Shown in pieces: positions 11,428 to 24,030 of a stretch of DNA of 64,000 nt. This DNA comes from a virus. Within the stretch, counting starts at the first letter, position 1. Each line of letters begins with the position of its first letter. Under the pieces are notes generated by a model, which was not told the DNA's origin, did no database searches, and saw nothing but the letters and a program-made list of their open reading frames with translations. The DNA lies in the IMG/VR virus record IMGVR_UViG_3300030333_008459, positions 1 through 64,000 of that record. One strand, given 5' to 3'. Made by a program: the position numbers and the translations under genes.

Positions 11428-12687
11428 TCATCCATGATCACCTTTAGCTTTCTCTATTTGTTTTTGTGTAGGAGCACCTTTGTCTCCTTTTTTACGCATT
11501 TTTTCACCAGAGCCGCTTTTGATGCGTTCTTTTTTCTTTCTGATGTTTTCCCAAAGACTGCTGTCAGACTCTTTTTTCTTCTTAATAATTTCATCATGGC
11601 GTTTCATGAAAGCCTCATGATTGGGACCAGCCATATAAAGAGTTTTGCCGTCTTCGCTTTTGTGAGTGTGGAAACCTTGTAAGCCTAATTTTTTTGCATC
11701 CTTGAGGGCTTCTTCTTTGGTTTTAAAATAGTGCTGCATAGGATCAGCAGCAGCTTTAGCTATGTCAGAATCAGCTTTCCTGTATGATTCTTTAACCTTG
11801 CCCCCTCTCCGCATTTTGAGAAACATATTAACTCTAGCCATAGCCCAGCCATGACGAGACATATTAGGTCGATGAGATGTGCTGAAAGCTCCAGCGCCAC
11901 GCCGATACACCTTTTTAAGTTGACCAAGAGTTACTTTTTTAGAATGCTTAGAATTATGTTCTTTGACTTTTTCTTTTAGAGAATTTGTGGTTTTTTCGCT
12001 AAATGTAATCTTGCCACCCTTTTCTCCCGCGCTTCCTTTGGGGTTTTTCTTGGAACCTTTCTTTCTTTCACTTGGTTCAGCAGGAGTTTGAGCACCGCTT
12101 TTGCGACCCCTACGTTTAGCCGCCTCAGAAACATCTGCATCTGGGACATTGGCTAAATTAGGGTTCATTGCTAAAAGTTCATCGTGATCGAAAATTGTTT
12201 CACCATCCCATTCATATTCGCTCTCTAAAGACCCCTCTACCTTCTTTCCAGACCTCCACTGCTTACAAGACCAATAGCGAGCTTTATACTTCGGACCTGG
12301 GTTGTCACAATTATGCCTAGCTCTAAAGCTTTTTCTGCGAGCAGGGTCATCCCTCTTTATTTCCATATTGGGGTCACCAAAATTTACTTTTACGATATTA
12401 CCTTTTTCGTTTTTGACGTAAACAGAGAACTTTTTCGGACCTTTTGGGGTTCTGAAAGGTTTGTTTAGGGTTTTATTCTCCTTAGCGGCTTCAGAAAATA
12501 TAATATATTCCGTGTCGCCTTCCCCCACTACGAGAGAGGCTTCGCTTAAACCCTTTTTATACTGAGAAAAACAGACTGCTGCTCTTTGTTTATTGTCCTT
12601 GAATTCATCCTTACCAGCTAAATCTAGCATACATCTGTTCATGAACTCAGAACGCTTCTCTTTGTCTTTGGGAGATGGGAGTGGCAT
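11428..12687 (-). CDS. Modular basic phage polyprotein (DUF6321-like, DUF5824-like and other small phage domains)
   Basis: MPLPSPK..E.RSEFM.RC; LNKPFRTPKGPKKFSVYV...FGDPNM...RRKSFRARH.C...ARYWSC; LKKVYRRGAGAF...WAMARVNMFL; SLWENIRKKKERI.SGSGEKMRK.G.KGAP. Confidence 0.7.
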   Translation of the reverse strand: MPLPSPKDKEKRSEFMNRCMLDLAGKDEFKDNKQRAAVCFSQYKKGLSEASLVVGEGDTEYIIFSEAAKENKTLNKPFRTPKGPKKFSVYVKNEKGNIVKVNFGDPNMEIKRDDPARRKSFRARHNCDNPGPKYKARYWSCKQWRSGKKVEGSLESEYEWDGETIFDHDELLAMNPNLANVPDADVSEAAKRRGRKSGAQTPAEPSERKKGSKKNPKGSAGEKGGKITFSEKTTNSLKEKVKEHNSKHSKKVTLGQLKKVYRRGAGAFSTSHRPNMSRHGWAMARVNMFLKMRRGGKVKESYRKADSDIAKAAADPMQHYFKTKEEALKDAKKLGLQGFHTHKSEDGKTLYMAGPNHEAFMKRHDEIIKKKKESDSSLWENIRKKKERIKSGSGEKMRKKGDKGAPTQKQIEKAKGDHG

Positions 12688-14068: not shown

Positions 14069-14097
14069 ATATTATGTGAATGAAACCTCTTTGTCAA
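14069..14097 (-). promoter_or_regulatory. Sigma70-type promoter, leaderless
   Basis: TTGACA-17 bp-TAATAT, 7 nt before the ATG at 14061. Confidence 0.7.
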
Positions 14098-16501
14098 CTA
14101 TTTTTAGAGAAATTTTTTCTGCTTTGTTATTTTGCACTATAAACTTAGATAAAGGCACTTGAATCAAGGTTTTAACTAAATTTTTAATTTGTCTCGCGTG
14201 GCTATTTTTCTCTTTAATTTTATTGAAAATGTATTTTTTAATACTTGGATGGTATTTTATATGTATTTTTCTATCTACTAATCTTTCACTAATAAGATTA
14301 AGCTCCGTGCTAATTATTTTATTTAGATGGTTGTCTGATAACTTATTAAAATAAAGTATTTCGTCTAATCGAGCTAATAATTCGGGTCGTAAATGATTCT
14401 CTAAAGATTTTTTGTATAATTCAGAATCATTTTTATTCTCAGGAAGAAAACCAACACTGCGTTTAGATTTTTCATTATGACCTATATTGGAAGTCATAAC
14501 TATAATACTCCTGCTGAAATCAACATCTCTATTTAAGTTATCAGTAGCCTTTCCTTCGTCTAATATATGAAGAAGTAAATCTAGTATTTTAGGATCGCAC
14601 TTCTCTACTTCATCAAACAAAATTACACAATTAGGATTATTGCGAACAAATTCAGTTAATAAACCACCCTCTTCAAAGCCTACATATCCAGCATTAGCAC
14701 CAATAAGTTTAGAAACGCCAGTTTTGTCCTGATACTCGCTCATGTTTAACTGGATAAAAGACTTCTCGTTACCAAAAAAATACTTAGCTATTTTTTTAGC
14801 TGTGAAAGTTTTACCTACACTTGTGCCACCAATAAACAAGAAGTTAGATAAAGGTTTGCAAGGGTCATTTAGGCCAGCTTTAGCACAAGCTAAAGAATTA
14901 TGAATAGAAGATATTATATCTTCTTGTCCAAATATTTCGCTATTCATCTGTTTGGCAAAGTTTACAAATGAGGAGCTGTTTTTGGTTATTGTTTTGGCTG
15001 AAAGACCTGTTTTTTCAGTAAAAACTGCTATTATATCTTTTTGTCTAATTTTTTGCTTACGACCGTGAGGTTTCGTTATATCAGCCAATTCTTGCAAGTA
15101 TACTTTTAAAATTGTGGTGAATTTTTCCTCATCTAAATTCTTTTCGTCTCCGCTCTCTACTAAGAAATCACAAAGATCTTTTCTAGCATCAGACATTTTA
15201 GAAGAAATCTTGACGTATTTTATCTTAGTTCTAGCTCCAATTTGATCTATCAAATCAAAAGCTTTATCTGGAAATCTTTTGTTGCTTAAGAATTTGTGGC
15301 AAAAATCTAAAATAGTGTCAATATCCTCTTCTTTGTAATTAACGTGATGAAAATCTTCATAAAAAGGAAGAGCTTTCATGACAATTTCCTTAGTATCAGC
15401 TTTAGAAGGTTCATTAATAATGATTTTATCAAACCTTCTTTTCATGGCTGTGTCTTTCTCAAAAAACTTTTTATATTCTTGTGAAGTAGTGGCACCAATA
15501 CACTTAATATCCCCACGGGCTAATGCTGGTTTTAACATATTGGAAGCGTCAACAGCCCCCTCTGAATTACCAGCTCCTATTATCGTATGTATCTCATCAA
15601 AGAATAAAACCACCTTAGGGTCTTTCTCTGCTTCAGCTATTAAAGCCTTAAATCGCTCTTCAAATTCACCCCTATATTTAGTCCCAGCTACCATAGCGCT
15701 TATGTCTACCGCGCAAATTTGCATCATAGATAGATGAGGAGGCACTTGCTGAGTAACAATTTTTTGGGCCAAGCCTTCCACTACAGCAGTTTTACCTACG
15801 CCAGCTTCACCCACTAAAATAGCATTGCTTTTATTCTTTTTGGAAAGGATTTCTATTAATTCTGTGGTTTCTCGATCCCTACCTGTAATTTTAGCTGATT
15901 TCTTTTCGATAAACCTTTCATTAAGGTTTATACAAAATTGATCTAAATAACTTAAAGGAGCTTTTTCTTCTTCTCGGGAAAAAGAGCCTCTTTTCCCCTC
16001 TATCTGGAGAATTGTTTTGATTTGATCTGTGGGAGGTATGCTGGTTTCTAGCACATGTGTTTCAATAACATCTTTTATGTGGATAGGATCAATGCCTTCT
16101 GAACGCAAATGGTCTATAAACTCGCCGCCACTATCAATAGCTATATATAAAATATGCTCCACCCCGATAAAAAAACTATCAAAAGTATCTGAAAATTCTT
16201 TTGCTAGCAAAATTATTTCATTTATTTCTTGGTGCCATCCACCTTGACCTTTACTAGACTCAAAAGATTTCTCGTTTTTTATTGAGTAGTCTTTAAAAAT
16301 TTTAACAAATTTTTGAGAATCAAGGGGAACCCCGTAACCTTTAAGCTTTAAAATGCAGCTGTCGGATAGGTTCGATAAACAACCATAAATGAGATGTGGA
16401 GCAGAAACAAGAGAGTGACCGTTAGCTTCCGCAAATTTTTTAGCGTCTTTTAAACCTTTTTTCGCTTTAGGGGTGAGATTAAAATCAGTTAGGCCCATCA
16501 T
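14072..16501 (-). CDS. clpC: ClpA/ClpC-family AAA+ ATP-dependent Clp protease ATPase subunit
   Basis: Clp N-domain; Walker A GEAGVGKT; AGTKYRGEFEER; FDEIH; LKPALARG; RRF; second NBD GGTSVGKT with MSEY, GYVGFEEGG and FDEVEK; VGF ClpP-docking-type loop. Confidence 0.92.
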   Translation of the reverse strand: MMGLTDFNLTPKAKKGLKDAKKFAEANGHSLVSAPHLIYGCLSNLSDSCILKLKGYGVPLDSQKFVKIFKDYSIKNEKSFESSKGQGGWHQEINEIILLAKEFSDTFDSFFIGVEHILYIAIDSGGEFIDHLRSEGIDPIHIKDVIETHVLETSIPPTDQIKTILQIEGKRGSFSREEEKAPLSYLDQFCINLNERFIEKKSAKITGRDRETTELIEILSKKNKSNAILVGEAGVGKTAVVEGLAQKIVTQQVPPHLSMMQICAVDISAMVAGTKYRGEFEERFKALIAEAEKDPKVVLFFDEIHTIIGAGNSEGAVDASNMLKPALARGDIKCIGATTSQEYKKFFEKDTAMKRRFDKIIINEPSKADTKEIVMKALPFYEDFHHVNYKEEDIDTILDFCHKFLSNKRFPDKAFDLIDQIGARTKIKYVKISSKMSDARKDLCDFLVESGDEKNLDEEKFTTILKVYLQELADITKPHGRKQKIRQKDIIAVFTEKTGLSAKTITKNSSSFVNFAKQMNSEIFGQEDIISSIHNSLACAKAGLNDPCKPLSNFLFIGGTSVGKTFTAKKIAKYFFGNEKSFIQLNMSEYQDKTGVSKLIGANAGYVGFEEGGLLTEFVRNNPNCVILFDEVEKCDPKILDLLLHILDEGKATDNLNRDVDFSRSIIVMTSNIGHNEKSKRSVGFLPENKNDSELYKKSLENHLRPELLARLDEILYFNKLSDNHLNKIISTELNLISERLVDRKIHIKYHPSIKKYIFNKIKEKNSHARQIKNLVKTLIQVPLSKFIVQNNKAEKISLKIVDKEVSFT

Positions 16502-16507
16502 AATTCT

Positions 16508-16513
16508 TTACAC
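16508..16513 (-). promoter_or_regulatory. GTGTAA motif
   Basis: 6-9 nt upstream of the two adjacent clp ATGs. Confidence 0.5.
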
Positions 16514-19068
16514 TATTTAATTTCAGATAACTTCATGTAGATTTTATCCTTTAGAGGAAAAAGTTTGTCAACAAAAACAACATCGTCTCCTTTGGAGCCA
16601 TAAATGATAATTATATCTCCTTTAACTGGTAGTTTTTTACCTTCATCTAGGTAATCTGTAAGACGAGAAGCGCGATTGCTGTCCAGAAACAAAGCATTCA
16701 CATTGCCAACTTCATCTTGAATATCTAAACGAGCGTATTTGTTGCCATTTCTGCTAGTCCTTCTAATAATATCGGTGATAACACCTACAAATTTAACATT
16801 AGCTCTCTCTGCTAGATCGCGGACAACAGAAGAGGAGTGGAAATCGTCTTCGTAACTGAAAACCTCTCTTATGTTGAATGAGTAGCTATATCCTAGTAAT
16901 TTTTCCTCAAAATACCAATTAGAGTATTTAATGTGTTTGGAGTTCATTTCGTATATCTCTTTGTAAGGTGAGAACTTTTTACGAAATGTCTCAAAACGCC
17001 TATCTGTAAACATCTGGCGGTTGTCATCGCCTACCATTTTATCTTTGCGAGTTTCATGGATCGCTGTGATAATATCATAATTATATTTATCTCCTAAGGC
17101 GATCAAGTTTCTCTTTTCTCGATCAGTGAGAATGTTGAAGGTCTGAGCTTCAAGAACTAATCGGCATCTGTTGCTGTGGACAAAAGAATCGAGTAAACCA
17201 GCTTGGATAAGAGCTGATAAGATACCTATATTAAGCCCAGCTTGTTTTGCAGACAGGAAGACTTCATATTTGTTCGCAAATGAATCCTCTCTAAATTCTA
17301 ACAACGACTCTAAAACCTTAGTAGAAACCCCTTTAATTGAGTTAAGACCATATCTAATGTTTTCACCCTCAATTTTAAAGTCAATGTCAGACTTGTTGAG
17401 ATCGGGCGGCAAAAGTTTTATGCCGAAATCCCCTAGTTCTTGAGTAATCTTAGCTATTTCTTCGTGAGAATTAGGTTCATACTTTGTATATTTTAAAAGA
17501 CTTAAAAAGAACTCTTTAGGGTGGTTAAATTTAAGATATACAGTGCAAGCTGCCAGATAAGCATAACTAATTGAGTGTGACTTGTTGAAAGAGTAGTTAG
17601 CAGAGTCTTCAGCTACGCTCCACAAGACATCTCCGATGGCAGGATCGAGATTGTTTTGTTGTATTTTTTCTTCGATCTTAGCTTTCCACGCTGGCATCTG
17701 ATCCACCTTCTTCTTCCCTACGATACGCCGTAACTGCTCCGATTCATCAAGGCTGAAGCCTACTTTAACAGCCATTTTCATGAGCTGTTCCTGATACAAG
17801 GGGATACCGCCTGTATAACTTAAAATATCATCAAAAAATTCATGAACCGACTGAGATTCCCCTGTTCTGACATATTCTGCGTATCTATCCTTAAAGTCTA
17901 AAGCTCCAGGTCTAGCAATAGCGACAACAGCAGAAAGCTGCTCCAGATCCCGTGGAGCTATTTGCTGACACACCTTGAAGTTGGTATCTGCTTCGATCTG
18001 GAAAAGCCCCTGTGGAGAGCGTAGACAAGAGAGGGCTGCGTATATGGAAGGGTCATGAGGATCTATCTCAGAGGCTTCTATACCTATCTGCTTACAAACA
18101 TCATGCACTACAGATAAAGTCCTCAAACCAAGAATATCAAACTTAACGCTTAGACTCGCCACATCATTCATGTCATAGCCAGAAACCAATGCCCCATCAT
18201 TTGTAGTTTGGAGTGGCATAATATCGTCTAAATCATAATAAGAGATACAAATACCAGAAGGGTGAACTCCTGTGTTTTTATTTAACCCTTGAAGTTTTTT
18301 AGCTATGCGAAAAGCTTTAGAGTGCTTATCTGCATAAGCCTTGAAGGTTTCGCTCTCTTCATATGCATCATCAAGTTTAGCTACGATCCCAAAGTGTTTC
18401 GGGATTGTATCACTAATTTGGTTTACTTCTGCTTCGCTTAAATCTTCTACTATCTTACCGCACTCTTTCATGCAGAGCTTACTGCTCAAAGTATTAAGAG
18501 TCAGAATTTTAGAAGTGCGTCCTTCGAACTTTTTCTCGATGTAGGCAATCACCTCGGCACGACGATCATAAGAGATATCGTTATCAACATCAGCTAGCAA
18601 GCTACCATCAAGATAAATTTCTCCATTATGTTCTATTTTTTTGGCCCTGCTTTTAGAGACAAATCTTTCGAAGAAAAGATCATACTCAATGGGATCAATG
18701 TTAGTGACCCCGATTACATAAAGAACCAGAGAACCTGCCGCACTCCCCCGACCTGCGCCTGTCGGGATATCGTTTTCCTTACAATAGTTAAGAATATCCC
18801 AATTTAGAAGAATATAGTCTACAAACCCTAAATCTTGGAAAATTGTTAATTCTTCTTTTATTCTTTCATAATAAGTTTGAGCGTTATCAAATTTATCAAT
18901 CCCCTTCTCTTGGACTTTTTTGTAGCAAAGCTTTCTTAGGAACTGGAAGTTATTCCCCAGGTCATTACAAGAAACTTCGTCATAATATTTTTTTTCTATT
19001 TGGATTTCTGGAAGCTTAACACCCACAGGAAAGGGAGTTTTGTAGCCCGTGTATTTGGTGGCATTCAT
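16513..19068 (-). CDS. dnaE: DNA polymerase III alpha subunit, catalytic part lacking the PHP domain
   Basis: GAGRGSAAGSLV, LFFERF, LADVDND (catalytic DxD), HPSG, KFDILGL, YSFNKSHS, HhH and OB fold. Confidence 0.95.
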   Translation of the reverse strand: MNATKYTGYKTPFPVGVKLPEIQIEKKYYDEVSCNDLGNNFQFLRKLCYKKVQEKGIDKFDNAQTYYERIKEELTIFQDLGFVDYILLNWDILNYCKENDIPTGAGRGSAAGSLVLYVIGVTNIDPIEYDLFFERFVSKSRAKKIEHNGEIYLDGSLLADVDNDISYDRRAEVIAYIEKKFEGRTSKILTLNTLSSKLCMKECGKIVEDLSEAEVNQISDTIPKHFGIVAKLDDAYEESETFKAYADKHSKAFRIAKKLQGLNKNTGVHPSGICISYYDLDDIMPLQTTNDGALVSGYDMNDVASLSVKFDILGLRTLSVVHDVCKQIGIEASEIDPHDPSIYAALSCLRSPQGLFQIEADTNFKVCQQIAPRDLEQLSAVVAIARPGALDFKDRYAEYVRTGESQSVHEFFDDILSYTGGIPLYQEQLMKMAVKVGFSLDESEQLRRIVGKKKVDQMPAWKAKIEEKIQQNNLDPAIGDVLWSVAEDSANYSFNKSHSISYAYLAACTVYLKFNHPKEFFLSLLKYTKYEPNSHEEIAKITQELGDFGIKLLPPDLNKSDIDFKIEGENIRYGLNSIKGVSTKVLESLLEFREDSFANKYEVFLSAKQAGLNIGILSALIQAGLLDSFVHSNRCRLVLEAQTFNILTDREKRNLIALGDKYNYDIITAIHETRKDKMVGDDNRQMFTDRRFETFRKKFSPYKEIYEMNSKHIKYSNWYFEEKLLGYSYSFNIREVFSYEDDFHSSSVVRDLAERANVKFVGVITDIIRRTSRNGNKYARLDIQDEVGNVNALFLDSNRASRLTDYLDEGKKLPVKGDIIIIYGSKGDDVVFVDKLFPLKDKIYMKLSEIK

Positions 19069-19697
19069 ATATCCAATTCAAAAAGTTGTTTACGGAAAAA
19101 TTTAAAATTCATTTCAATATCATAAAGGGCATCATGAAGTCTCTTGGGATCATGAGGTATATTATATTTCTTCAAAAGAAACCCTTGGGATGTTTTTAAA
19201 CCCCTCTCTCTATAATTCAGCAATCTATACTGCCAACTTAGAAAGTCTTTTTTATCCACAGGAATTTGCTTCGCAATGGCAACAGCTAAAGCTCTGGTGT
19301 CAATCATTCTAGGTAAGTAACAATATGTAGATGGTAGATTTATCAACTTCCTCCATACATTAAGCATATAGACATCAAATCCCAGCACATTATGTCCGAC
19401 TAGAAAGGTATTTGGATCATAAAAATCTTCAGCAAAAACATCCCATACTTCTTTAGGCGATTGACATTTCTTTTCATACTGTTTCTGAGAAAAACCAGTA
19501 ATCCTTGCAGCCTCTTCAGAAATATTTAAATCAGGCCACTCAATGTATAAATCTCTCTTTTTTATAACCCTATCCCCTTCTGCGACCAACCAAGCAACTT
19601 GCCAAGGTCTAGAAGAAACTAGGTTCAGTCCCTCAGTCTCCGTATCAAAAACAAGATACTTTTGTTTTTTATCAAATCTAAGCAGGGGTTCGGTCAT
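19065..19697 (-). CDS. dnaQ: DEDDh 3'-5' exonuclease (Pol III epsilon-like proofreading subunit)
   Basis: VFDTETEGL, GHNVLGFD and HDALYD motifs. Confidence 0.9.
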   Translation of the reverse strand: MTEPLLRFDKKQKYLVFDTETEGLNLVSSRPWQVAWLVAEGDRVIKKRDLYIEWPDLNISEEAARITGFSQKQYEKKCQSPKEVWDVFAEDFYDPNTFLVGHNVLGFDVYMLNVWRKLINLPSTYCYLPRMIDTRALAVAIAKQIPVDKKDFLSWQYRLLNYRERGLKTSQGFLLKKYNIPHDPKRLHDALYDIEMNFKFFRKQLFELDI

Positions 19698-20439
19698 AGT
19701 TTAAATGTTTTTTCTCTAGGTAAGACTCAAAGCAAAACTCTGCGCTACCAAAGTGATTCAAGTTTGGGTTGCTCAATGTGGCGGCTTTGCCAAAATTTCG
19801 ATTACACAAAATCTTGTAGGTTTGCAGGGCTTCTGCGTCTTCTCTGTTTTTGTATAAAATTGTTTTTACTGACTTAACAGGTCTCATCATGCTGCGAGCG
19901 AACTTTCTTACTTTTTCTGCTAAAATAGCATCAAACGGCAGATTGTTACACTCTATCCAAAATGTCGGCAATACCTTATGAAAATCAGGTAAGCACTTCT
20001 TCATGTGAAAGTTATTATTAAATATAAAAGAATCATAAAAAGGTATCACAAGCTCCAAATTCTCATCAAGCAATGAGTTCAGAAAACCGAAATCTACTTT
20101 ACCAGTCTCGGTATGAGCAAAAGAATAAATCCTGTAAAGAAGGCGACAGCCTTTGTCGTTATTAGCAAAGATTATAATCTTATGATCTGAATCATCGTCA
20201 TCATAAATACCGTTACAGCAGGTTATCCTTAACCCAAACACAAGGTTCATCCCAGCCTCTTTACAACGATTGTGGGCCGTCACAAAACCCGTCATAGAAT
20301 CTTCGACTAACACTAAAGATTTAATCGAATTCTCCTTGCAGATTTCTATGATACTATCTGCACCTCCCTCGGATGATTCTTCGTCAAGAGTTAGGATACT
20401 CTTTCCTATAGAGTAGGTTGACTTAAATACTGGAGTCAT
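19678..20439 (-). CDS. Stand-alone PHP domain of DNA polymerase III alpha (metal ligands degenerate)
   Basis: KSTYS, LVLVEDSMTGF, LVFGLRI, HKIIIFANNDKG..LL..YS and ILYKNREDAEA align with the DnaE PHP domain. Start placed at ATG 20439 after a leaderless promoter. Confidence 0.85.
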   Translation of the reverse strand: MTPVFKSTYSIGKSILTLDEESSEGGADSIIEICKENSIKSLVLVEDSMTGFVTAHNRCKEAGMNLVFGLRITCCNGIYDDDDSDHKIIIFANNDKGCRLLYRIYSFAHTETGKVDFGFLNSLLDENLELVIPFYDSFIFNNNFHMKKCLPDFHKVLPTFWIECNNLPFDAILAEKVRKFARSMMRPVKSVKTILYKNREDAEALQTYKILCNRNFGKAATLSNPNLNHFGSAEFCFESYLEKKHLNYDRTPA

Positions 20440-20446
20440 CACCAGC

Positions 20447-20474
20447 ATCTTAAACCTTTGTATCCAAAGGTCAA
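20447..20474 (-). promoter_or_regulatory. Sigma70-type promoter with a palindromic spacer
   Basis: TTGACC-16 bp-TAAGAT, 7 nt before ATG 20439; contains the ACCTTTG-gata-CAAAGGT inverted repeat. Confidence 0.6.
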
Positions 20475-21496
20475 GAGGAATGTGCGGGGCATCCCTGATA
20501 ATATTTCATTTCATAACTGCAACCCTCGGGAACTAAATCCTCAGAAAATTCATCTTCGAAATAAGAGGTGATAAATTTTCCCTCTGCGTTGGTAACTTCA
20601 TAATAAAAGAAATCAAACTTCATGGGGCAATGCCACTTCGGATTGCCGTCTATTTTTAATTCTCCTTTTTTTGTGGCGAATCCACATAGAAGTTTGCCGC
20701 TAAACGAATTATCTTTCGGGAAACCTTGATGAGCGGCATAGTTTTTCTGGGCATCTTTTTCTGAAAAGTTATCTAAATATTTTTGTATTTCAGACAACTG
20801 CATTTCAAATCCTTTTAACTCATCCTCGTCAAGAGGTTTCATACGCACAACGCCTGACTTTTTTGCATCAGGGTCGAGATCAAACTTCAAAAACAAGAAC
20901 TCGCTAACCCTCTCAGAATATTCGGGAAATAAATTTTTTACCGCAAGGCTATACATAAGATCTTGCAGATTATCGGTTTGATCTTTTCCCTTGAAGACTT
21001 CTTTGCTTGTTTTGAAGTCTCTAATTATAGCAAACTTTTTTCTCTTATATAAAAATAATTTGTCTATAAATCCTCTAATTTTATATTTTATGTCTCCGTC
21101 ATTTTTTACAATGTCGAAGTCTTTTTCTGAGTATTCTTCTGTTGGGTTTCCTAAGTCTGTCCCAAAAAAATCATAAGACAGACCATTGAAAATCATGTCT
21201 TTCATCATATCCACATTATCACAATCATCTATTCCCTCTCTGATTGCGTGTTTAAGGATTAATCTTTTAATAGACGGAACAGAAAATACATCTTGGGTTT
21301 TTAATATTTTATTATAATATTTTTTTCTACCCTTAAGACCCAAAACTTCAAAAACCAAGTGACATATCGAGCCTCTTTTGGCCCCTTCGTTGCTTTTATC
21401 AGGAAGCTTTAGTTTATACTTGCACCAGTAAAGCCATGAACACGATTGTGCCGTTTTTATTCTGCTTGCAGACAACGGCGTTTCGAGTTCAGGCAT
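20471..21496 (-). CDS. PD-(D/E)XK nuclease (RecB/AddB-like exonuclease)
   Basis: LSASRI...C.W.Y; RGSICH; IRGFIDKL...IIRDFKTSK; Q...Y motif. Confidence 0.88.
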   Translation of the reverse strand: MPELETPLSASRIKTAQSCSWLYWCKYKLKLPDKSNEGAKRGSICHLVFEVLGLKGRKKYYNKILKTQDVFSVPSIKRLILKHAIREGIDDCDNVDMMKDMIFNGLSYDFFGTDLGNPTEEYSEKDFDIVKNDGDIKYKIRGFIDKLFLYKRKKFAIIRDFKTSKEVFKGKDQTDNLQDLMYSLAVKNLFPEYSERVSEFLFLKFDLDPDAKKSGVVRMKPLDEDELKGFEMQLSEIQKYLDNFSEKDAQKNYAAHQGFPKDNSFSGKLLCGFATKKGELKIDGNPKWHCPMKFDFFYYEVTNAEGKFITSYFEDEFSEDLVPEGCSYEMKYYQGCPAHSS

Positions 21497-22553
21497 CGCT
21501 AAGTATTAAGGCTGTTTTAATTTCTTTCTTAGTGAAGTAAGATGGGTTGTTTTGAACAAAGTCTAAGATATATTTTATTTGTGCAGCCTTATCTATATCT
21601 TTACTTAGCCAATTACTGAAATCATAACCATCTAAATGAGCGTCACCAAAATCATTATATGGCTTGGGAGGGAATTTTACAGTAAGCGCATCTAAATCAA
21701 AATATCTAGAGAGCTTTATGAAGCTTTTTATCCCCGCTATGAACCCTCTATTTTGCCCACTATTTTCATCATTATTTGTTGAAATGCATATATGACGAAT
21801 AGAGTAGCCACAAAGATAATTGACAATGTTATTATTAACAGATAGGCCAAAAATGACCAAAACGTTTTTAATACCTTGTTCATAAAGAGATAACGCATCA
21901 CCAATACTTTCTACTAAAATAACTTCTTGTTTTGTTTTGATTTCCGCATCAACACCAGTGTTTGTGTTAAAAGCGGGATAAACCCAATTGTTGCGTCTTC
22001 CTATATGCTTCCATTTTGGATAATCATTATCTGAATCAACCTTTCTACCAGAAAAGCCAATTATTTGATTATGCTCATTAAAAATAGGGAAAACCATTCT
22101 CCTATACATTTTACCGACACCCGCCAAGCCAGATTGAAATGCTTCTTGTGTTTGTTTGGAAATTTTTCTCTGCTCGTAAAAGTGATAATTCGGGAAAAGC
22201 CTTTCAAGAGAGGAATCTGGATAAATTTTTTCCATTTCTATTGTTTCTTTTGCAGAATAAAGCTCAGAGGTTTCTAGTGTGCGCCCCCCAAGCAACTCCT
22301 TTATTTGTTTGTCGTCTTTGACAGTTAATCGGACCAAAGCCTCAAAAGGCATAGAGCCTTTGTTTTGAACAAAGTCCATCCAAACCCCTGTGTTTTTGTA
22401 TACTTTTACAGCGGTTTTATTGTCTCCGTCTCGATATAAAGCCTGTGTCCTCCAGTGATCTCCACAATCAATCAGCTGATAACCGATTGACTCTAGTATA
22501 CCTTGGAAGTCTTCAGAACTGATCGAAGTCAGGGATTTCTTCTTGGACTCCAT
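21489..22553 (-). CDS. dnaG: DNA primase (DnaG-like, TOPRIM)
   Basis: RMVFPI...IIGFSGR...PKW; ILVESIGDAL; TNND; NDFGD. Start codon uncertain. Confidence 0.88.
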   Translation of the reverse strand: MESKKKSLTSISSEDFQGILESIGYQLIDCGDHWRTQALYRDGDNKTAVKVYKNTGVWMDFVQNKGSMPFEALVRLTVKDDKQIKELLGGRTLETSELYSAKETIEMEKIYPDSSLERLFPNYHFYEQRKISKQTQEAFQSGLAGVGKMYRRMVFPIFNEHNQIIGFSGRKVDSDNDYPKWKHIGRRNNWVYPAFNTNTGVDAEIKTKQEVILVESIGDALSLYEQGIKNVLVIFGLSVNNNIVNYLCGYSIRHICISTNNDENSGQNRGFIAGIKSFIKLSRYFDLDALTVKFPPKPYNDFGDAHLDGYDFSNWLSKDIDKAAQIKYILDFVQNNPSYFTKKEIKTALILSDA

Positions 22554-24030
22554 TGCTATCTAATTCTTCTTCACCATCAAGCATTCTTGCTATATCTCTT
22601 AAGTCTCCTCTTTCTGAGATATTAAAGTTATTAAAATCTAGGTTAATTGAGTTTTTACGAAGTGAGTCGCCAATCCTCACTGGCTCAACTGCGCCAGCTA
22701 TGTCACTGCCCAAATGACGAGCCTTGACGTTTATTAGTTTGTGACTACCAAACCTGCCCCCCTCTGTCTCCATCTCATCAGCAGTCTTGTTGCGTAAGAT
22801 AAACATATGAGAGCAGAACTGTGTGATTCTATCAGAAAGGGAAACAATAGACTCATCATCTACAATGTTTTGAGAGTTCCTATTATTGGTTATGCCATAC
22901 CTGTTAGACTGCACTGAAGTGATCATGGGTATGACAGGATTCCCGTCATGCAAAATCTCTTTTTGAACACACTTTTTAAACTTGTCCACCATCTCACCGA
23001 CAACCTGCCACTCTGATTTGTTAGCGATGTTTTCAGATGTGGTTTTTATATAATCAAAAGAAAATACCATAGGGTTGCCGCGACCGACCTTAGAATAGTA
23101 AAATCTCTTCAGGGTATTAACCATAGAGTCCACATCCATGCCCCCTACATTGTAATAATAGAATTTTAAATTCTTAACCTTAGGCCAAACTGCTCTGACC
23201 TTTTTAACAACATCCTCTCCTGCTCGTCTCCATTTACCACTCTCAAGAAGATGCATTGAAACACCAGACAGGGCAGCGCATTGACGCATAATAAGCTCCT
23301 CTTTGCTCATTTCACCATTGTCGAAGTGAAGAACAGGGACATCATACTGAAGACTAACCTTGGTAGAGTAATCCATGCAAAATTGAGTTTTACCCACACC
23401 AGACCTAGCTACAATAACAGTTATATTACCAGCACGTAGAAGAGAGCCGTAAATCTCATTAACCTTTGGGTGCGGACCCATCATACCAAACTCTGTGAGC
23501 GGGTTATTACCCCGATCCTCTACAAGAGCCTCCATTTCCTCATATATGTTCTCTGGGACATCGTTGCCCATTTCATAAAGGTTGATGCGAGAATTATATG
23601 CGCTATCTGCTGCTTCAATTATGGCGCGATAAGATGCCTCAGGAGGCATGTTTTTCATCTTTTTGCCGATGTCTTGAGAGGACTCTAGAATTTCGCGTCT
23701 TATTGAGTATTTTTTTAGCTCCTTAGCTGTTTTAAGGGTATTGCCCTTCGGCACTTTCCTGAGAGCTAAAGATTTAATGTAGTCGGAGGGATTTAAATTG
23801 TCTTCGAAAGACAACCCAACCTCGTTTACCCTTTGAGCAATGATAACCTCATCTATTTCGTCTCCAGCATCAATAGCTTGTTTAATAACACGAAAAATAG
23901 CAGAATGCAGAGAGCTTTGTTTGGAGTAAAAATCAGAGTTACCTATAAAATTAGATATCTCCGCTAAAGAATCAGGCTCTTTAATTAGACCCGCTAAAAG
24001 CTGCTTTTCTAATTCAAAATTATAAATCAT
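22513..24030 (-). CDS. dnaB: Replicative DNA helicase DnaB
   Basis: DnaB N-domain; ARSGVGKT, GEMS, FDYI, VQSNR and KAR motifs. Confidence 0.93.
   Translation of the reverse strand: MIYNFELEKQLLAGLIKEPDSLAEISNFIGNSDFYSKQSSLHSAIFRVIKQAIDAGDEIDEVIIAQRVNEVGLSFEDNLNPSDYIKSLALRKVPKGNTLKTAKELKKYSIRREILESSQDIGKKMKNMPPEASYRAIIEAADSAYNSRINLYEMGNDVPENIYEEMEALVEDRGNNPLTEFGMMGPHPKVNEIYGSLLRAGNITVIVARSGVGKTQFCMDYSTKVSLQYDVPVLHFDNGEMSKEELIMRQCAALSGVSMHLLESGKWRRAGEDVVKKVRAVWPKVKNLKFYYYNVGGMDVDSMVNTLKRFYYSKVGRGNPMVFSFDYIKTTSENIANKSEWQVVGEMVDKFKKCVQKEILHDGNPVIPMITSVQSNRYGITNNRNSQNIVDDESIVSLSDRITQFCSHMFILRNKTADEMETEGGRFGSHKLINVKARHLGSDIAGAVEPVRIGDSLRKNSINLDFNNFNISERGDLRDIARMLDGEEELDSNGVQEEIPDFDQF

Follow-up and report, generated by a model that had tools for sequence, protein, structure and literature searches.

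A separately encoded PHP protein, a DEDDh exonuclease and a PHP-less DnaE-type core as the probable DNA polymerase of an uncultured tailed phage

We describe a DNA polymerase of the C family that is encoded in three pieces in the genome of an uncultured tailed phage. The stretch of DNA analysed, hereafter the window, covers 64 kb from the start of a linear 78.5-kb IMG/VR virus record (IMGVR_UViG_3300030333_008459; estimated completeness 67%); it encodes a terminase, a tape measure protein and nrdAB. On its minus strand three overlapping open reading frames (ORFs), labelled P0001, P0002 and P0003, follow one another in the order PHP, exonuclease (Exo) and polymerase (Pol) (table 1). We consider it likely that the three genes specify separately translated subunits of one replicative DnaE-type polymerase with a non-catalytic PHP protein, and that this is the only DNA polymerase of the phage. 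The non-covalent assembly of the three proteins and the surfaces they would use we infer. A preliminary description, made from the letters alone, had reported three overlapping ORFs in this order, for a degenerate PHP domain without its histidine ligands, an epsilon-like exonuclease and a DnaE lacking PHP, and had seen no intein motifs; all of this is borne out by the results that follow. Its end coordinate, 20439, corresponds to the second ATG of the PHP ORF, which itself reaches 20448. Since all the relatives begin to align at this second ATG (M4), 20439 is probably the true start of the PHP protein.

What remains of a PHP domain in P0001? Its AlphaFold2 model (pLDDT 94.9, pTM 0.91) contains seven core strands, a complete PHP barrel. 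The best Foldseek matches of this model, 4gx8 and 5fku among them, are the DnaE PHP domains of E. coli, Taq and M. tuberculosis (E 1e-11 to 1e-8), with that of E. coli at the top (TMq 0.75–0.78). A profile built from 116 stand-alone PHP homologues aligns to residues 49–251 of the PHP domain of Taq DnaE (E 9e-11). The match of P0001 itself to Pfam PHP (PF02811), at 25.8 bits, falls just under the cut-off of 26.4; its relatives score 27–44 bits. The canonical PHP metal-ligand motif consists of nine residues, HHDHEH[C/H]DH (PMC12926913). None of the nine is present in P0001, where the positions read V7, K9, K16, E49, R74, K90, F137, T196 and L198, the three N-terminal ones being placed by eye on a Y-S anchor. 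Across the 116 members of the family these columns are mostly L/I, K, K/R, E/D, R/K, K, F, S/T and Y/F, and canonical ligands are at most sporadic (E at position 74 in about five members; two members each at positions 16, 137 and 198). Basic or hydrophobic residues thus occupy the metal site, and the family has invariant motifs of its own, such as IPFYDSF. Because none of the nine metal ligands is present, P0001 reads as a complete PHP domain that is catalytically dead and for which the role of a metal-dependent nuclease would be impossible.

The polymerase active site lies, as far as alignment can tell, in P0003. Three Pfam families match it above their curated cut-offs: DNA_pol3_alpha (PF07733, 208 bits), the finger domain (PF17657, 100 bits) and HHH_6 (PF14579, 65 bits). 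The OB match (PF01336) at residues 759–824 is weak (E 4e-4; 20.7 bits against a cut-off of 27). Residues 63–639 align with residues 380–955 of Taq DnaE (3e0d; E 6e-92). In this alignment the motifs ADVDNDIS (159–166) and KFDILGL (309–315) of P0003 stand opposite PDIDTDF and KMDFLGL of Taq, from which we conclude that the palm aspartates are in place. We take the catalytic aspartates to be D162, D164 and D311, by correspondence with D401, D403 and D555 in E. coli. Where does the core begin? P0003 covers positions 325–1054 of phrog_405 and starts at about residue 320 of Taq DnaE, while P0001 covers positions 61–290 of the 1190 in the same phrog. It follows that the core begins where PHP ends: it is a DnaE cut at the boundary between PHP and palm, with PHP on an ORF of its own. 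P0003 passes the cut-off of 434 set for TIGR00594 (458.9), and its best NCBIfam models are of the DnaE1 type (NF004226, 460 bits) rather than of the error-prone DnaE2 type (NF004225, 284 bits), all of them below their equivalog cut-offs. The PolC models NF001688 and TIGR01405 match the HhH region alone (residues 536–637), at 43–47 bits against cut-offs of 873 and 1043. By these profile scores the core is to be classed as DnaE-like, not PolC-like. A tau-binding C-terminal domain was not detected in P0003 (no search was aimed at that domain); the chain ends at residue 851 and leaves no room for one.

The gene between these two encodes an exonuclease of the kind expected of a proofreader. P0002 matches RNase_T (PF00929) with 62.6 bits over residues 15–200 and phrog_192, ‘DNA polymerase exonuclease subunit’, with E 6e-24. 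The DEDDh set is complete: FDTETEG (17–23), GHNVLGFD (101–108) and HDALYD (188–193) for Exo I, II and III, with D18, E20 and T21 invariant across 167 unique exonuclease homologues. The closest solved sequence is the exonuclease domain of Thermotoga PolC (2p1j), and all of the epsilon equivalog models score far under their cut-offs. Ahead of Exo I, a strongly conserved peptide, M-[DN]-E-x-L-L-R-[FY]-[ND]-K, opens the free-standing exonucleases (167 unique sequences), and its stretch as far as [FY] is 90–98% conserved; in covalent PHP-Exo fusions this LLR[FY] peptide is degenerate or absent. We infer no more than that it could be a candidate docking peptide for PHP or for a clamp. Our alignment of PHP plus exonuclease (A6) still misplaces some 11 residues at the N-terminus of its exonuclease rows.

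Is the division into three genes real? DNA nearly identical to that of the window occurs in 20 public sequencing runs from 12 studies, all of them marine or seawater metagenomes, dated 2014–2025, with no RNA run listed among them. Over positions 16400–20600, contigs from four runs of four studies differ from the window by substitutions only, with not one inserted or deleted letter. Contigs of runs X3 and X4 bridge the PHP/Exo junction without indels, and those of X2, X3, X4 and X6 do the same for the Exo/Pol junction. The check on the junctions near 19066 and 19690 that the preliminary description had proposed thus finds both bridged in independent runs and free of indels that would fuse the frames. 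Many of the substitutions within the exonuclease gene lie three bases apart, as expected for synonymous variation. Comparisons with the window itself were saturated at synonymous sites, and the ratio of nonsynonymous to synonymous substitution rates (dN/dS) was therefore taken from closer pairs among the relatives; in 64 moderately diverged pairs the medians are 0.051 for PHP, 0.032 for Exo and 0.023 for Pol. We conclude that the split is not an assembly error and that all three genes are under strong purifying selection.

The same arrangement recurs far beyond the window. A first scan of IMG/VR returned at least 587 related stretches, of which we examined the best 80, with Pol sequences 72–89% identical; three ORFs are present in every locus long enough to hold them. 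Two further scans with profiles of more distant PHP clades brought the total to 249 loci, some of which are the same contig fetched twice. PHP, Exo and Pol are separate ORFs in 209 of the 249, and in eight Pol is split once more (PHP / EXO / POL / POL). One or more of the parts are missing from 30 loci, mostly cut by contig ends, and two carry a single PHP-EXO-POL ORF. Clustered at 50% identity, the family numbers 457 representatives or more, and it is present on over 600 IMG/VR contigs; its phages are marine and aquatic, all uncultured, and the three-gene layout is widespread among them. In the collection of cultured phages we found no megablast match to the region and, by tblastn, no detectable homologue of P0001; their best DnaE and TerL matches are less than 30% identical, and the cultured phage DnaEs that we inspected (Yasdnil gp54, Sundance gp070) are full-length single genes. 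A PHP motif specific to the family turned up in nine of 185,579 species genomes. All nine hits are contigs of metagenome-assembled genomes (MAGs; L254–L262), whose labels name an archaeon, Neomarinimicrobiota, Bacteriovoracaceae, Flavobacterium, Nitrospinales, Woesebacteria, Cellvibrionales and others. Most likely these are phage contigs that were mis-binned, and with taxa so discordant they give no clue to the host.

Do these phages possess another polymerase? We checked two near-complete relatives, one of 140 kb (100% complete) and one of 104 kb (94% complete), the latter with a Pol 92% identical to that of the window. An A- or B-family polymerase (PolA, PolB) was not found in either, and the RNase_T genes number one per genome. 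No DNA polymerase apart from the tripartite enzyme is thus recognisable.

If the three proteins are made separately, do they belong to one enzyme? An exhaustive HMMER search with P0001 over 1.84 billion cluster representatives gave 457 matches at E up to 1e-3. Among the best 150 of these, which we classified, 137 are PHP-only, mostly of about 250 amino acids. The other 13 are fusions: two PHP-Exo proteins of about 470 amino acids (P0087 and P0114; a third, P0156, came from another search), two single chains of PHP, RNase_T and Pol3alpha (P0070 and P0127) and nine proteins that join PHP to Pol, three of them with an intein N-half at the end. The preliminary description had suggested a search for fused versions in related phages, and PHP-Exo-Pol, PHP-Exo and PHP-Pol chains are all found. 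The PHP-Exo-Pol chains are 1431–1669 amino acids long, some with an intein; the longest, in locus L093 (IMG/VR contigs of 100 and 173 kb), joins PHP, RNase_T, Pol3alpha, finger, intein and HhH in one ORF of 1669 amino acids. The gene order around it is that of the window: DnaB, primase, PD-(D/E)XK nuclease, polymerase, AAA+ protein. The breaks of the split form map to short linkers of the fused forms, that of PHP exactly to the linker between PHP and palm. By Rosetta-stone logic, the natural fusions and the shared gene order make it most likely that the three window proteins constitute one enzyme.

A natural fusion also allows the relation between the first two parts to be modelled. The AlphaFold2 model of the PHP-Exo protein P0087 has a pLDDT of 87.7 and a pTM of 0.86, with the linker alone poorly defined. 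Such a pTM is high for domains of 255 and 205 residues, and suggests that in the fusion the two domains have a defined mutual orientation or contact. Taken singly, they match DnaE PHP domains (Z about 21) and DnaQ-type exonucleases (Z about 20–21). When PolC chains were compared with the model by VIA-align, they aligned with one domain at a time, never with both.

Table 1. Positions of the polymerase genes, their junctions and neighbours in the window (numbered from its first letter) and of selected features in related loci (given as locus:positions).
Feature	Position	Strand	Remarks
Stand-alone PHP subunit, P0001	19678-20448	-	256 aa; 253 aa if start at 20439
DEDDh (DnaQ/epsilon-type) 3'-5' exonuclease subunit, P0002 (putative)	19065-19697	-	210 aa
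DnaE-type polymerase core without PHP, P0003	16513-19068	-	851 aa; palm, thumb, fingers, (HhH)2, weak C-terminal OB
PHP/Exo junction	19678-19697	-	20-nt overlap; Exo ATG within PHP 3' end; PHP stop is TAG
Exo/Pol junction	19065-19068	-	4-nt ATGA stop-start overlap, a form typical of translational coupling
N-terminal exonuclease peptide, residues 1-14	19656-19697	-	conserved LLR[FY]
PD-(D/E)XK nuclease, upstream	20471-21496	-	Pfam match
DnaG-type primase, upstream	21489-22553	-	Pfam match
DnaB-type helicase, upstream	22513-24030	-	505 aa; Pfam match
ClpA/ClpB-like double AAA+ protein, downstream	14072-16501	-	809 aa; Pfam AAA_2, AAA, ClpB_D2-small; phrog_4871 E 1e-206
DUF5824 protein	11428-12687	-	419 aa
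Single-chain PHP-Exo-Pol	L093:6001-11010		1669 aa
DnaB homologue of the fused locus	L093:1098-3548		816 aa
AAA+ gene after the fused polymerase	L093:11000-12427		475 aa
Methyltransferase/cupin genes between Exo and Pol	L006:4379-4993, L092:6370-6984, L018:4049-5014, L011:4664-5014, L019:4655-5005, L050:4667-5014		
155-200 aa ORF between PHP and Exo	L066:684-1214, L193:6729-7235, L213:6737-7228, L200:6743-7210, L242:6817-7281		
155-200 aa module fused to PHP	L195:5917-7302		

How might the enzyme work? Taken together, the facts fit a single three-subunit enzyme in which PHP would be a non-catalytic structural or adaptor subunit. The core of 851 amino acids would carry the polymerase active site, the DEDDh protein of 210 would supply 3'–5' proofreading, and the PHP protein of 256 would be a pseudo-enzyme that keeps the fold of the DnaE PHP domain. 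Most likely it would do in trans what that domain does in cis, bracing the palm/thumb base of the core and offering a docking surface to the exonuclease. The three genes would be co-transcribed, and the translation of Exo and Pol is probably coupled through the ATGA overlap. Conclusions about the role of an inactive PHP domain, be it as a structural brace or as a dock for the exonuclease, have come mainly from E. coli. We would go further only tentatively. It is possible, and in our judgement somewhat less than an even prospect, that the dead PHP protein is a dedicated assembly hub, one that clamps in trans onto a core without PHP and brings in the proofreader by way of the LLR[FY] peptide. 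If so, DEDDh exonucleases would have been coupled to C-family polymerases independently for a third time, PolC and the Bacteroidetes DnaE1 being the other two cases, and nature would here allow the structural role of PHP to be separated from the polymerase chain.

Several observations weigh against a three-subunit enzyme of this kind or against the way in which its parts are thought to meet. No match to the beta clamp (PF00712, PF02768) or to the clamp loader (PF13177) was found in the record or in the two near-complete relatives. P0002 has no C-terminal tail of the epsilon type, the domain match ending at residue 200 of 210, which bears on the mode of docking. The PHP-Pol relatives have no intervening exonuclease, which shows that its place between the two is not obligatory. 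As evidence, the pTM of a natural fusion is indirect, and the alignment behind the P0087 model was shallow over PHP (13 rows).

How did the three-gene layout arise? The preliminary description had proposed the fission of a PHP-Exo-Pol fusion. We compared a tree of PHP domains (141 rows) with a tree of Pol domains (39 rows, inteins removed) rooted on two cultured-phage DnaEs; both were made by quick search, the outgroup branches are very long and the root is weak. For fission speak the fused triples found in the same synteny, and their position in the Pol tree, where they form the sister clade of the window's own split clade (99*). In the PHP tree, however, fused forms are nested among stand-alone PHPs, and the triple fusion is one tight, long-branched clade (100*) of three representatives. 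Next in the Pol tree comes a clade that holds 19 split loci and, basal to them, the PHP-Pol protein P0025. With just two fused loci in the 249, parsimony favours secondary fusion, weakly in view of the root on its very long outgroup branches. Because the triple fusion is a single tight clade nested among stand-alone PHPs, and the next outgroup is likewise split, it looks secondary and derived. We therefore regard the origin of the layout from an ancestral single-chain polymerase as improbable, and the claim made for it is left unsupported.

The deeper history involves the PHP-Pol proteins. Starred branches of the PHP tree force at least three separate placements of PHP-Pol forms, and five PHP-Pol proteins group as a clade close to the weak root of the Pol tree. 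A metagenome scan with P0025 gave a single close relative, L263, the nearest one available, and this locus too is tripartite. No related loci were found for P0025 in the viral scan, or for P0155 and P0101 in the viral and metagenome scans. Perhaps a canonical PHP-Pol gene underwent fission and an exonuclease gene landed in the gap, or perhaps the exonuclease was lost repeatedly with re-fusion of what remained.

Could the PHP protein be no polymerase subunit at all? It might serve another replisome or host factor, or regulation, while the core works with the exonuclease alone. The binding of PHP to the core is indeed putative; the protein is dead and diverged, with the Pfam score just below cut-off and family-specific invariant motifs such as the one cited above, and in some lineages it is fused to an unrelated module of 155–200 amino acids. 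Against such independence, the nearest folds of P0001 are PHP domains of DnaE, and within the polymerase operon its gene always comes directly upstream. Several lineages have PHP fused covalently with Exo, with Pol or with the two together, at the canonical place, and the split falls exactly at the PHP/palm linker. An independent role thus seems to us unlikely, and a subunit of the polymerase remains the preferred reading of P0001.

The module of 155–200 amino acids deserves a word of its own. As a separate ORF without a Pfam match it recurs between PHP and Exo in many relatives and is absent from the window. Elsewhere it is fused to the C-terminus of PHP, in ‘PHP-ext’ proteins of 406–472 amino acids (P0048, P0054, P0055, P0057, P0074, P0085, P0104 and P0154). 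It may be an optional fourth component of the polymerase module.

Might the three ORFs nevertheless give rise to one polypeptide, by a programmed frameshift, by read-through or by protein trans-splicing? The ORFs do overlap, and relatives carry inteins elsewhere in Pol, at about residue 497. Yet Hint and intein families (Intein_splicing included) match at neither break, nor anywhere else in P0001, P0002 and P0003 at E up to 1, although in relatives they are readily detected at another site. The TAG of PHP, if read as sense, would be followed by TGA two codons on. Nor are the junction sequences and frame relations conserved. In the related loci the PHP/Exo junction ranges from an overlap of 206 nucleotides (-206) to a gap of 2300 (+2300) that holds other genes, and the Exo/Pol junction from -34 to +2514 nucleotides, with the ATGA overlap (-4) in 110 loci. 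The larger gaps are filled by whole unrelated genes: in close relatives an FkbM-type methyltransferase and/or a cupin of the mannose-6-phosphate isomerase type between Exo and Pol, and in many relatives the uncharacterised ORF of 155–200 amino acids between PHP and Exo. The variable junctions and intercalated genes exclude a conserved recoding signal, as they do a sequencing artefact, and we consider the production of a single chain from the three ORFs very improbable. The intergenic sites of the polymerase operon are insertion hot spots for glycan-related accessory genes. As to artefact or decay, that is, a single PHP-Exo-Pol gene broken by frameshifts or a pseudogenised DnaE, the single-chain relatives do make such a gene biologically possible, but the four independent runs with zero indels and both junctions bridged, the more than 200 related loci with three ORFs in differing frame relations and offsets, the genes intercalated in many relatives and a dN/dS of 0.02–0.05 in each ORF reduce this explanation almost to nothing.

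Some relatives divide their genes at further points. In eight loci (L132, L162, L163, L169, L171, L191, L205 and L252) Pol is broken into two ORFs at about residue 497, at the motif NKSH/S. L093 and P0070 have a contiguous intein at the same site, which is also where P0102, P0130 and P0134 break off in an intein N-half. Such breaks are probably ‘fractured genes’ of the type of Dassa et al. 2009 (PMC2677866). The DnaB homologue of L093 is 816 amino acids long against 505 in the window, with its N and C domains some 400 residues apart, and likely contains an intein or other insert; the AAA+ gene that follows the fused polymerase has 475 codons' worth of protein against 809 amino acids in the window, and may be split. 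In the window itself, the DUF5824 protein listed in table 1 scores 32.8 bits, above the cut-off, with a weak match to DUF5754. Both are families described from large eukaryotic viruses, and would be odd in a tailed phage.

What follows from the tripartite form? A large and abundant clade of uncultured phages keeps a dead PHP as a separate, strongly constrained protein, with the gene of the proofreader placed between PHP and the core. This amounts to a natural dissection of Pol III alpha, in which the need of the core for PHP in trans and the docking of an exonuclease without a tail become testable questions. The modules fuse and split, and all combinations occur in the family. There is a consequence for annotation too, in that the PHP protein of the window scores under the Pfam threshold and the cores resemble truncated DnaE genes.

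How does this compare with the polymerases already known? The cellular C-family replicases covered by surveys carry PHP on the polymerase chain (Timinskas 2014, PMC3919608; PMC12926913), and in the literature we found no published description of a stand-alone DnaE PHP or of the order PHP-Exo-Pol. A DEDDh proofreader is known to be joined to Pol III alpha in three ways: as a separate epsilon on PHP, within PHP as in PolC, and N-terminal to PHP as in the Bacteroidetes DnaE1 (PMC3919608, PMC12926913). The first is that of E. coli, whose epsilon docks on the inactive PHP of alpha (Ozawa et al. 2013, PMC3664792). Like the E. coli Pol III core, the phage combines a DnaE-type polymerase, an inactive PHP and a separately encoded DEDDh exonuclease. 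In the alpha-epsilon-theta complex, however, the alpha chain includes PHP, and a C-terminal segment of 57 residues tethers epsilon, whereas the phage PHP is a protein of its own and the phage exonuclease ends about 10 residues past its domain and has the N-terminal LLR[FY] peptide instead. Neither a theta homologue nor a clamp was detected in the phage.

With PolC of the Firmicutes, which the preliminary description had cited, there is a loose agreement in that PHP, a DEDDh exonuclease and a core are associated in roughly the same order, and the phage exonuclease is in sequence nearest to PolC-type domains. The likeness does not extend to the placing of the exonuclease. In PolC it interrupts the PHP barrel (Timinskas 2014, PMC3919608): on PolC 9qpc our family PHP profile breaks off at residue 479, near profile position 88, and picks up again at 636, and in P0001 it is continuous. 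In the phage the exonuclease follows a complete PHP. Given this insertion point in PolC, the phage arrangement differs and is presumably independent. The phage core, moreover, is DnaE-like, with HhH and then a weakly matched OB at the C-terminus. The Bacteroidetes DnaE1 resembles the phage system as a DnaE-type polymerase with a DEDDh proofreader in the same neighbourhood or chain, independently of PolC (PMC3919608); there, unlike in the phage, the exonuclease precedes PHP on a single chain, with some 60 residues of linker between the two.

Polymerases in pieces have precedents as well. DnaE split with split inteins is known in cyanobacteria, and ‘fractured genes’ in marine metagenomes (Dassa et al. 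2009, PMC2677866); the relatives in which Pol is broken at about residue 497 with intein halves resemble them. Those pieces are rejoined by protein trans-splicing, and their breaks lie inside the catalytic core. The breaks between PHP, Exo and Pol, in contrast, fall at domain linkers without intein motifs, so that the products must stay separate. The nearest counterparts of all are the single-chain PHP-Exo-Pol polymerases of related phages (that of L093, P0127 and P0070), which have homologous modules in the same order and in the same operon context as the window, and differ from it in being one polypeptide, and rare.

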